Assembly: GCA_902384585.1 (NCBI GenBank)
Contig: CABMCJ010000001.1
Coordinates: 671 to 64,670 of the forward strand
DNA length: 64,000 bases
Direction: 5' to 3'
Source of the DNA: Candidatus Anstonella stagnisolia
GTDB lineage: Archaea; Micrarchaeota; Micrarchaeia; Anstonellales; Anstonellaceae
This document shows positions 54,434-59,964 of the stretch, piece after piece. The translations under genes and the position numbers were made by a program. The notes under the pieces are model-generated. The model made no database searches. It saw nothing but the letters and a program-made list of their open reading frames with translations, and was not told where the DNA came from. The first letter of the stretch is position 1. Each line of letters opens with the position of its first letter.

Positions 54434-54683
54434 GCCGGGGTCGCATAACCTGGTAGTGCGCACGCCTGGAAGAACCCTTTTGCTCGCTCCAGATTGGAGT
54501 GCCCTAACGGGCACTGCTCTCGCGAACGTTCGCGTTCGCTCGATGGGGACGCGCAAAAGCGTTGACGGAAAATCGTCAGCGGATAAGATAATGATATCCA
54601 GCAAGCGTGTGGTCGCAAGGCCGTATGGGTTCAGCGCCCCTTTCGCATGGAAAATGGCGCGCCCAAAAATCCCATTCCCGGCG
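54434..54683 (+). tRNA. tRNA-Ser (anticodon GGA) with 132-nt intron at 37/38 (54472..54603) and a putative ~34-nt T-loop intron (about 54634..54667)
   Basis: Manual fold: acceptor GCCGGGG/TCCCGGC, D stem GCAT/GTGC, anticodon stem CACGC/GCGTG, loop CT-GGA-A|A. The long variable arm is GGTC-GCAA-GGCC. The T arm ATGGG-TTCA[...]AAT-CCCAT is assembled only after removing an insert. Discriminator G. Intron 1 has the central helix CTGG/CCAG and the ca|A bulge. Intron 2 boundaries and BHB are not resolved. Confidence 0.6.
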
Positions 54684-57407: not shown

Positions 57408-57492
57408 GTGGGGGTGGCAGAGCCTGGTCAAATGCGCTAGCTTGAGGGGCTAGTGACTTAGGTCTTCGAGGGTTCGAATCCCTTCCCCCACA
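57408..57492 (+). tRNA. tRNA-Leu (anticodon GAG), intron-less
   Basis: Acceptor GTGGGGG/CCCCCAC, anticodon stem CTAGC/GCTAG with loop TT-GAG-GG, variable arm GAC..GTC, T arm GAGGG-TTCGAAT-CCCTT, discriminator A. Confidence 0.85.
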
Positions 57493-58764: not shown

Positions 58765-58962
58765 ATGTATTTTCCAATACGCTGTTTTACATGCGGCGCA
58801 GTGATAGGGCAGCAATACGCCGAGTATGAAAAGCGCGTGAAAGGCGGCGAGAACCCAGCGGAAGTGCTCACAGACATGGACGTTGAGCGCTACTGCTGCA
58901 GGCGCATGTTCCTCTCGCACGTGGAAGTAATGGACAAAGTAGTGAAATACGGAAAGCTTTAG
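58765..58962 (+). CDS. rpoN: DNA-directed RNA polymerase subunit N (Rpo10)
   Basis: MYFPIRCFTCGAVIGQQYAEY...YCCRRMFLSHVE. Confidence 0.93.
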   Translation: MYFPIRCFTCGAVIGQQYAEYEKRVKGGENPAEVLTDMDVERYCCRRMFLSHVEVMDKVVKYGKL

Positions 58963-58968
58963 ATTTAA

Positions 58969-59133
58969 GGGGTCATGGGGCAACCTGGCTAACCTACTGC
59001 CTTGGGGTGGCAGCGATCCGTGTTCAAACCTAGGGGGAACGTATGTGTTCCGAAAGTCCCCCTGAGGTCTCACCCCCTCTTCAAAACCGAAGAGGCGTGG
59101 TTGAAATCTCTGGTGAAAATCACGGTGACCCCA
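58969..59133 (+). tRNA. tRNA-Pro (anticodon GGG) with 91-nt intron in the T-loop at 59/60 (59029..59119)
   Basis: Acceptor GGGGTCA/TGACCCC, intact anticodon arm CTGCC-TTGGGGT-GGCAG, T stem CCGTG/CACGG, T-loop TTCAAA|...|T. BHB: central helix TTCA/TGAA, bulges AA|c and aa|T, outer helix CTAGGG/CTCTGG. Discriminator A. Confidence 0.75.
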
Positions 59134-59208
59134 TTTTTGTTAAAGGGTGATTCCGAAAGTGGTTTGCAGAAATGCAAAATTCTGCGGGACTCCCAAGAGG
59201 TTGAGAAT

Positions 59209-59964
59209 ATGAGCGAAAAAGAAAGCATGCTGATAAAGCAGGAAAAATACCTTGAAGCAGGCATCCACATCGGCACAAAGCTGAAAGTAGTGGACATGAA
59301 CCGCTTCATTTACCGCGCACGCAGCGACGGGCTGTTTGTGCTTGACCTTCGCAAGGTGGACGAGCGCATACGCATGGCAGGCAAAATGCTCTCCGCGTAC
59401 GACCCAAAAGACATCGTAATAGTCGCATCGCGCACATACTCCACAAACGCAGCCTCAAAGTTCGCGCAGGTTACAGGCGCGCGCCTCATGGCAGGCAGGG
59501 TTGTCCCAGGCACCTTCACAAACGTGCACCGCGACGACTTCACAGAGCCAAAACTCCTTTTCACGTGCGATCCAAAGGGCGAACGACAGGCAGTGCTTGA
59601 GGCAGGCAAGATGGGCATTCCCACAATCGGCCTTTGCGACACTGACAACTACACCTCTTACCTTGACTGGGTAATCCCGTGCAACAACAAGGGGCGCCGC
59701 TCGCTCGCTCTCATATTCTACCTTCTTGCGCGCGAAATGGCAATGAGCACAGGGAAAATCTCCTCATACGACGAGTTCAAGGCAACCCTTGAGGAATTCG
59801 AAACCCCAGAGAAAACAGAGGAGGAAAAGCAGGCAGCAGCAGCCGCGGCAGCAGAAGTTGCCGCAGCTTCAGCCGCCCCTGCAGCAGAAAGCCCTGCTGC
59901 TGACGAGGGAATCGAAATAAAGAACGAAAAGAAAGTTGAGGCAGAAGGGGAAGAAAAAGAATAA
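59209..59964 (+). CDS. rps2: Ribosomal protein uS2 with acidic/Ala-rich tail
   Basis: KYLEAGIHIGTKLKVVDMNRFIYRARSDGLFVLDLRK. The ATG at 59209 follows GAGGT; the ORF-track start at 59002 overlaps tRNA-Pro. Confidence 0.93.
   Translation: MSEKESMLIKQEKYLEAGIHIGTKLKVVDMNRFIYRARSDGLFVLDLRKVDERIRMAGKMLSAYDPKDIVIVASRTYSTNAASKFAQVTGARLMAGRVVPGTFTNVHRDDFTEPKLLFTCDPKGERQAVLEAGKMGIPTIGLCDTDNYTSYLDWVIPCNNKGRRSLALIFYLLAREMAMSTGKISSYDEFKATLEEFETPEKTEEEKQAAAAAAAEVAAASAAPAAESPAADEGIEIKNEKKVEAEGEEKE

Follow-up and report, generated by a model that had tools for sequence, protein, structure and literature searches.

The tRNA-Pro(GGG) precursor of ARMAN-2 carries two introns bounded by strict BHB motifs, one at position 53/54 and one at 59/60, and the ε2 endonuclease of this organism cleaves a 59/60 intron in vitro (Fujishima et al., 2011; PMC3239211). 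Both 53/54 and 59/60 are listed among the known non-canonical intron positions in a review (PMC4090602). A second precedent is given by the transposed BHB intron groups of the Thermoproteales (Fujishima, Sugahara, Tomita and Kanai, 2010, Mol Biol Evol 27:2233; in the accounts of PMC4090602 and PMC3239211), in which, according to these accounts, closely similar introns are found in tRNAs of differing identity, are gained and lost between close relatives, and require nothing of the junction except a BHB. A third is given by small cassettes that lie beside tRNA 3' ends in duplicated gene ends, as remnants of integrase att sites.

The tRNA-Pro(GGG) gene described here resembles that of ARMAN-2 in phylum, tRNA species, the 59/60 position, the strict hBHBh' motif and the type of endonuclease. 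It differs in having a single intron, with none at 53/54, where ARMAN-2 has two; moreover, the intron is 91 nt long, structured and part of a multi-copy family, whereas the available part of the ARMAN-2 paper gives one intron length, 13 nt (PMC3239211), and the two are likened by position and motif, not by sequence. The Thermoproteales groups belong to another phylum and, in the accounts cited above, depend on an (αβ)2 endonuclease (ε2 here) and occupy canonical as well as assorted non-canonical positions, whereas the copies in the two congeneric genomes compared below are found only at 59/60, where the T-loop provides one side of the splice helix. As for the att-site cassettes, the same core is so placed in other Micrarchaeota, whereas the present copy lies within the gene, with a splice motif at its boundaries and no duplication of the tRNA end. 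A tRNA-Pro(GGG) split in the T arm is already known in the phylum, a precedent that the first-pass annotation of this DNA had missed, together with the membership of the intron in a repeated mobile family. What is added is the intron family, a set of filled and empty sites, and the replacement of a 53/54 intron by one at 59/60, the family and the replacement being proposed on comparative grounds.

The window, that is, the whole stretch of 64,000 nucleotides analysed, corresponds to G000:C1:671-64670, where G000 is a Micrarchaeota assembly of 1.33 Mb in six contigs, 89% complete. The features at and around the gene are listed below in window positions, with a slash marking each splice point.

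58765-58962, + strand: rpoN, RNA polymerase subunit N (Rpb10-like), 65 aa, with a CC..C motif in the translation and a product taken to be of the RpoN family; upstream, ends 6 nt before the tRNA.
58969-59028, + strand: exon 1 of tRNA-Pro(GGG), single copy in the genome; acceptor 5' strand, D arm, anticodon arm (GGG), variable loop, T stem 5' strand and T-loop nucleotides 54-59 (TTCAAA).
59018-59026, + strand: 5' side of the BHB; T stem CCGTG (helix h, 59018-59022, paired with 59121-59125), then TTCA (59023-59026, the central 4-bp helix with TGAA at 59114-59117).
59027-59029, + strand: 5' splice-site bulge AA/C, from the sequence and the pair list.
59029-59119, + strand: intron of tRNA-Pro(GGG), 91 nt, BHB, position 59/60; member of the T-loop intron family, scoring 104.8 bits with model R1 over 59018-59125.
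59029-59077, + strand: conserved core module, CCTAGGGGG, about 20 variable nt, then CCCCCTGAGGTCTCACCCCC; contains hairpin P2 (59032-59063).
59064-59110, + strand: helix P3, GAGGT (59064-59068) with ATCTC (59106-59110), enclosing P4; supported by compensatory changes in the copies from Gly and Lys.
59118-59120, + strand: 3' splice-site bulge AA/T, from the sequence and the pair list.
59120-59133, + strand: exon 2; U60, T stem 3' strand CACGG, acceptor 3' strand TGACCCC and discriminator A73, with CCA not encoded.
59134-59138, + strand: run of five T directly 3' of A73, a likely archaeal transcription stop and putative terminator.
59209-59964, + strand: ribosomal protein uS2 gene, with the start corrected to ATG 59209 from homologue alignments.

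When 59029-59119 is cut out in silico, the 74-nt remainder is called tRNA-Pro(ggg) by ARAGORN, which bears out the first-pass proposal of a tRNA-Pro(GGG) with a 91-nt intron at 59/60, inside TTCAAA/T. The spliced molecule has a 7-bp acceptor stem (GGGGTCA/TGACCCC), the anticodon loop TTGGGGT, the T arm CCGTG-TTCAAAT-CACGG and A73. All the identity features of the tRNA are present (GGG in a 7-nt loop, U33, a purine at 37, A73, standard arms and a 5-bp T stem), and the D stem has three pairs only, one of them G-U. A73, G35 and G36 are identity elements of archaeal ProRS. The unspliced locus is missed both by ARAGORN (by default and with canonical introns of up to 200 nt) and by Rfam RF00005; over the whole window ARAGORN yields only a tRNA-Leu(GAG) at 57408-57492, and Rfam yields the same at the gathering threshold and at E values up to 5. 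As an archaeal BHB tRNA intron, the insert has the junction motif, and its removal restores a cloverleaf of which there is none in the unspliced locus.

The canonical BHB that had been drawn on top of the T stem was inspected base by base, and its pairs, bulges and helices all held: 15 of 15 pairs are standard, and the motif is a strict 3-4-3 hBHBh', with an outer helix formed by CTAGGG (59030-59035) and CTCTGG (59108-59113) that includes two G-U pairs. This geometry is that of a canonical 37/38 intron, with the T arm in place of the anticodon arm (5-bp stem, four paired loop nucleotides, bulge). Exon 1 ends in AAA and the intron in AAAA, which means that any splice point from 56/57 to 59/60 gives an identical mature sequence; the 59/60 placement is adopted because the 3-4-3 geometry alone fixes it among these equivalent points. 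The acceptor, anticodon and T stems all form in the unconstrained minimum free energy (MFE) fold (-65.8 kcal/mol, z = -2.3), from which the central TTCA/TGAA helix is absent. The cost of forcing the BHB over the MFE is 1.5 kcal/mol with a 2-nt 5' bulge, 4.0 kcal/mol with strict bulges and a 2-bp outer helix, and 6.0 kcal/mol with strict bulges and the 6-bp outer helix of the first-pass annotation; the latter helix competes with the conserved hairpins of the family, and the 2-bp version that keeps these hairpins is 2 kcal/mol better.

The contribution of chance was evaluated by collecting strict BHBs around introns of 11-220 nt on both strands of the whole genome, splicing them in silico and submitting the products to ARAGORN. 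This yielded 18 tRNA calls spanning the junction among 41,343 candidates, the window locus included, while the same pipeline applied to the reversed genome yielded 0 among 40,961. The tRNA-Pro(GGG) gene at 58969-59133 (+ strand) is confirmed as real, and so is its BHB intron.

The gene content of the genome includes what BHB splicing requires, namely a homologue of a broad-position endonuclease and the RNA ligase RtcB (587 bits). The splicing endonuclease EndA, of 393 aa (coding region L029:889-2067, ε2-type), matches the ε2 enzyme of ARMAN-2 from end to end (PDB 4FZ2, 395 aa; E 2.7e-128) and contains Pfam domains PF01974 and PF02778. Beside it is a second homologue of splicing endonucleases, of 195 aa (G000:C4:793539-793772, - strand; ORF L030:1453-2040, - strand), with 34.5 bits for PF01974 and 29.2 bits for PF02778, which may be a partner subunit or a spare copy. 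In the primary transcript, the 91-nt intron would sit between T-loop nucleotides 59 and 60, and a standard BHB would be built from the T stem, the 4-bp helix between U54-A57 and UGAA at the 3' terminus of the intron, two 3-nt bulges and a helix internal to the intron. The ε2-type endonuclease of the host would cleave both bulges, after which the exons would be joined by RtcB and the intron probably circularised; this transcription, cleavage and ligation of pre-tRNA-Pro(GGG) are predicted from sequence. It is considered very probable that the locus is a single functional tRNA-Pro(GGG) gene whose 59/60 intron, a repeated element most likely copied from Pro(CGG) by gene conversion, is spliced by the ε2 endonuclease and RtcB.

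The gene is judged to be needed, in use and under constraint because exon 1 occurs once in the genome, the commonest proline codon is CCC (in ORFs of at least 250 codons), the exons differ from those of the congener G001 by a compensatory pair in the anticodon stem (CTGCC/GGCAG vs. CCGCC/GGCGG), and synteny is conserved. A contrary proposal would be that tRNA-Pro(GGG) is a pseudogene, inactivated by the insertion of a small repeat, and that tRNA-Pro(UGG) reads both CCC and CCU; the element does occur outside tRNA genes, for example in the intergenic region G000:C4:382389-382459, and the locus is not recognised by standard tRNA finders. This proposal is scarcely credible in view of the perfect 3-4-3 BHB, the intact exons with their compensatory change, the broad-specificity endonuclease of the genome, and the fact that this is the sole Pro(GGG) gene while CCC is the most used proline codon. 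It would also need seven other tRNAs to be dead, with Pro(GGG) and Pro(CGG) both among the casualties.

The functional tRNA-Pro(GGG) gene lies in a conserved cluster of ribosomal and RNA polymerase genes, with the order tRNA-Leu(GAG) ... rpoN - tRNA-Pro(GGG) - uS2 found in 20 Micrarchaeota relatives. The tRNA-Pro(GGG) genes of these relatives are orthologous by position, between rpoN and uS2, and the two that have no intron are called Pro(ggg) by ARAGORN. All 20 relatives of uS2 belong to the Micrarchaeota/Micrarchaeia, the nearest being RIFCSPHIGHO2_02_FULL_50_12 with 91% amino-acid identity. The longest uS2 ORF opens at TTG 59002 and reads through the tRNA; that this start is wrong, as had been suspected, follows from the homologues, which align from residues 1-7 of the protein that begins at ATG 59209. 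The interval between the tRNA and the uS2 start (59139-59208) contains the motif TTCCGAAAGTGG followed by ...GCAG/CTGCGG..., conserved as YCCGARAGTRGC ... GCCTGCGG in most Micrarchaeota relatives, which may be a leader of the uS2 mRNA or a promoter-proximal element.

The architecture of the intron family consists of a 3-bp junction helix, a long hairpin P2 (TAGGGGG.../...CCCCCTG), the helix P3 (GAGGT/ACCTC) and an inner hairpin P4, formed in the window copy by CCTCTTC (59076-59082) and GAAGAGG (59089-59095) inside P3. In an alignment of 21 copies from several genomes, 91% of cells pair, vs. 80% when shuffled and 40-65% with slid partners; double-sided changes are found at 16 pairs, most P2 pairs are invariant, and the central BHB helix is paired in 98.7% of cells, all of these pairing and covariation figures leaning towards model R1, to which the alignment was fitted. 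The two hairpins reported at first pass are both present, and both are conserved and partly covarying across the 21 copies.

The intron was also compared with known classes of RNA. A search of Rfam with 58940-59160, at E values up to 10, returned no match for the intron except one chance match to a lncRNA, and none to a snoRNA or sRNA family. A box C/D sRNA, of the type found in Haloferax tRNA-Trp, was discarded: 59029-59119 contains no RUGAUGA, and its sole CUGA is internal (59062-59065). No k-turn consensus was seen, by eye, in the internal loop of P2. Self-splicing introns of group I and group II were discarded as well, given the lack of an Rfam match and a length of 91 nt, too short for either, and no coding potential is expected of an intron of this size. 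The notion that the intron is kept by selection as a stable circular or protein-binding RNA released by splicing, and not by recent copying, must be considered here. The core hardly varies at its ends from genus to genus while its apical loop is free to vary, the helices are preserved through compensatory changes, and excised archaeal tRNA introns are known to circularise. Nevertheless, invariant ends with a free middle are equally typical of mobile elements, and the notion is improbable for an intron with no Rfam family, no C box (RUGAUGA) and no k-turn consensus, whose copies are gained and lost between congeners, unlike an essential RNA, and whose core is absent from most of the phylum (present in 16 of 401 genomes).

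The reading of the intron as a repeated element starts from G000 itself, where nhmmer and the covariance model identify nine copies of the homologous family, eight of them T-loop introns (91-135 nt) and one an intergenic core. A strict scan found family introns of 92-97 nt, aligned over their full length, in five further genes, those of Pro(CGG), Gly(GCC), Leu(CAA), Lys(CTT) and Ser(GCT), and the profile and covariance model R1 gave three additional copies (Met/Ile(CAT), a 135-nt version and the intergenic core). The hosts are Pro(GGG), these five tRNAs, Met/Ile(CAT) and one unassigned tRNA, with nhmmer E values from 1e-15 to 1e-23. The Ser(GCT) gene is the one that ARAGORN calls 'Cys(gca)' at C4:8595xx, and it has G73, a long variable arm and a second intron of 21 nt at 37/38. 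The 135-nt copy lies in the T-loop of a multi-intron tRNA at G000:C4:760267-760418 and has an extra insert after P4; for the anticodon of this tRNA, brute-force removal of single segments led ARAGORN to many calls that contradict one another. The candidate '100-nt T-loop intron' at G000:C4:7072-7171 was set aside as apparently spurious.

Taken as a whole, T-loop introns are present in about 13 of about 47 tRNA genes of G000, and the tRNA-Pro(GGG) of 17 of 19 relatives has a T-arm intron at 53/54 and/or 59/60, in agreement with the earlier suggestion that the lineage uses T-loop introns systematically. Eight of these approximately 13 introns belong to the 91-135-nt family and two to a family of 41-42 nt; the remaining ones occur once each, in Gly(CCC) (44 nt), Arg(UCG) (26 nt) and the Ser(GGA) of the window (approximately 34 nt).

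Several observations were made on individual genes. The tRNA-Met/Ile(CAT) at G000:C4:874037-874340 (- strand) has two introns, one of the family (100 nt, at 59/60) and a canonical one of 70 nt; the latter contains a C-box-like GTGATGA and a second GATGA, and may include a box C/D guide. The multi-intron tRNA (G000:C4:760267-760550, - strand) has the acceptor stem GGGCCAG/CTGGCCC and approximately 68 further intervening nucleotides in the anticodon region. The intergenic core (- strand; L008:190-260) is truncated and free-standing, lies between two convergent ORFs, abuts one of the stop codons and has no tRNA near it. The 41-42-nt family is found in tRNA-Thr(TGT) (G000:C1:87317-87358, + strand) and tRNA-Leu(TAA) (G000:C4:861118-861158, + strand), with the form AGCTTT..CTGRCG..AAAATTTGYCAGCAA and a compensatory stem change, and both host genes have a canonical intron too. 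The tRNA-Ser(GGA) of the window (54434-54683) contains an intron of 132 nt in the canonical position as well as the T-loop intron of approximately 34 nt (TTCA/GCGCC...CCCAA/AAT), which forms no clean BHB at 59/60; ARAGORN reports a second Ser(GGA) at G000:C4:415811-415911. In ARAGORN output with long introns permitted, several genes have the wrong identity: the one called 'Ala(agc)' is Glu(CTC), the 'Trp(cca)' at C2:78942 is Gly(TCC), and the 'Stop(tta)' at C4:311091 is Lys(TTT).

The comparison with the congener G001 provides evidence of turnover. In that genome at least eight T-loop copies of the family are found, in Gly(GCC), Pro(CGG), Lys(CTT), Ser(GGA), Leu(TAG), Lys(TTT), Ser(CGA) and probably Tyr, and only the first three of these hosts are common to both genomes. 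In pairwise alignments, the genes for Leu(TAG), Ser(CGA) and Lys(TTT) have the family intron in G001 and an exact empty site in G000, between near-identical exons, and the canonical introns of Ser(CGA) and Lys(TTT) are conserved between the two. In all, differences of presence and absence affect four orthologous genes between the two congeneric genomes. The tRNA-Ser(GGA) of G001 has a 95-nt family intron at 59/60, vs. the T-loop intron of approximately 34 nt in its G000 orthologue, and the tRNA-Pro(GGG) of G001 has an unrelated 30-nt strict-BHB intron at 53/54 and none at 59/60. Among 19 relatives, the tRNA-Pro(GGG) has a 53/54 intron (30-196 nt) in 13, a short T-loop intron (12-56 nt) in three, neither in two, and both in one (as judged by eye), which is the arrangement of ARMAN-2. 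The window intron family was found at tRNA-Pro(GGG) in 0 of the 19 relatives examined.

The window intron is nearest to the Pro(CGG) intron of its own genome, with 85% identity, and the two are mutual nearest relatives, whereas the orthologous Pro(CGG) introns of G000 and G001 have only 80% identity, in a comparison that rests on approximately 90 aligned positions. Both proline introns of G000 lack AA at the 5' end and T before TGAA, two junction deletions that they have in common. In addition, the Pro(GGG) and Pro(CGG) genes of G000 have the T arm and the whole acceptor stem in common, and the Pro(CGG) of G001 differs by an acceptor pair, and because of this difference an exchange between the two G000 genes is proposed. 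The simplest account that these comparisons suggest is a single event of gene conversion from Pro(CGG) into Pro(GGG) in G000, which would have covered the T arm, brought in the 59/60 intron and erased the ancestral 53/54 intron.

Another way of looking at the origin of this copy is to consider an independent insertion into Pro(GGG), by reverse splicing or DNA transposition, with the 53/54 intron lost separately. The tRNAs for Gly, Leu, Ser, Lys and Met/Ile, in which there is little flanking homology, have also gained copies, and a mechanism independent of homology must therefore exist; furthermore, one copy in another genome (L040) is flanked by a duplication of approximately 19 nt. For the window copy this origin is nonetheless unlikely, although it retains some weight: it needs two events instead of one, and the junction deletions and mutual nearest relationship (85%) of the two Pro copies, as well as the acceptor stem that they have in common, unlike that of the congener's Pro(CGG), point to exchange.

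With respect to the wider distribution of the family, an exact match to the core pattern occurs in 16 of the 401 phylum genomes sampled, all 16 in the order to which the window belongs, and a control with the reversed pattern gave no matches. In its own family, G000 aside, the core is present in 12 of 29 genomes, with 1-13 copies each, and it was found in 0 of 94 and 0 of 83 genomes of the two largest other families. These counts are a lower bound, as the census included the exact pattern only, and R1 matches below approximately 30 bits outside the own family are partly generic to the T arm and BHB. The contexts of the core are also varied. In other genera it is found without P4; it occurs inside the 37/38 intron of a tRNA-Arg(TCT), and 2-3 nt past tRNA 3' ends, in some cases as tandem units in which the final 8 nt of the gene recur (L058, L055, L039, L043, L060). 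These contexts point to a mobility at the level of DNA, and the copies beside tRNA 3' ends with duplicated gene ends could be footprints of a recombinase instead of intron mobility. At L060:1470-1680 (G032:C2), two tandem core units of 81 nt lie just after the tRNA 3' end, each preceded by GCCCATTC, and at L040:1500-1620 (G042:C2) one copy of the core is reversed inside the T-loop, where the flanking direct repeat corresponds to the T arm.

The 16 tRNA-borne copies of the two congeners are all at 59/60, in sense orientation. The 3' end of the intron, GG(T)TGAAAA, contains the complement of the nearly universal T-loop sequence TTCA/TTCG, with G-U pairs tolerated where the T-loop is TTCG, and this pairing would explain why all the tRNA-borne copies in the genus lie at this position. 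The T-loop would act as one strand of the splice helix and the TGAA of the element as the other, and a valid BHB would be possible in almost any tRNA. In contrast, a canonical intron pairs with the anticodon and is specific to one tRNA, a limitation that the T-loop family would not have. Such a 'self-docking' mechanism was not found spelled out in the literature searched; no description of the present family was found in the literature on Micrarchaeota/DPANN tRNA-intron families, and a literature search on the core motif returned only unrelated primer matches. As a tentative proposal, given somewhat less than even weight, the family may be a mobile element without genes, specialised in T-loops and restricted to one family-level lineage of the Micrarchaeota, which would build its own splice site at 59/60, would do the tRNA no harm there and would spread by a DNA- or RNA-level route together with gene conversion between isoacceptors.

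The gene itself is ordinary biology for its phylum. It is a further example of how at least a quarter of Micrarchaeota tRNA genes escape the standard tRNA finders, and as a consequence neighbouring ORFs, such as that of uS2, are extended through tRNAs by gene callers. The exact filled and empty sites in two congeners, together with the proposed exchange of a 53/54 intron for one at 59/60, constitute rare direct material on the gain, loss and movement of archaeal tRNA introns.
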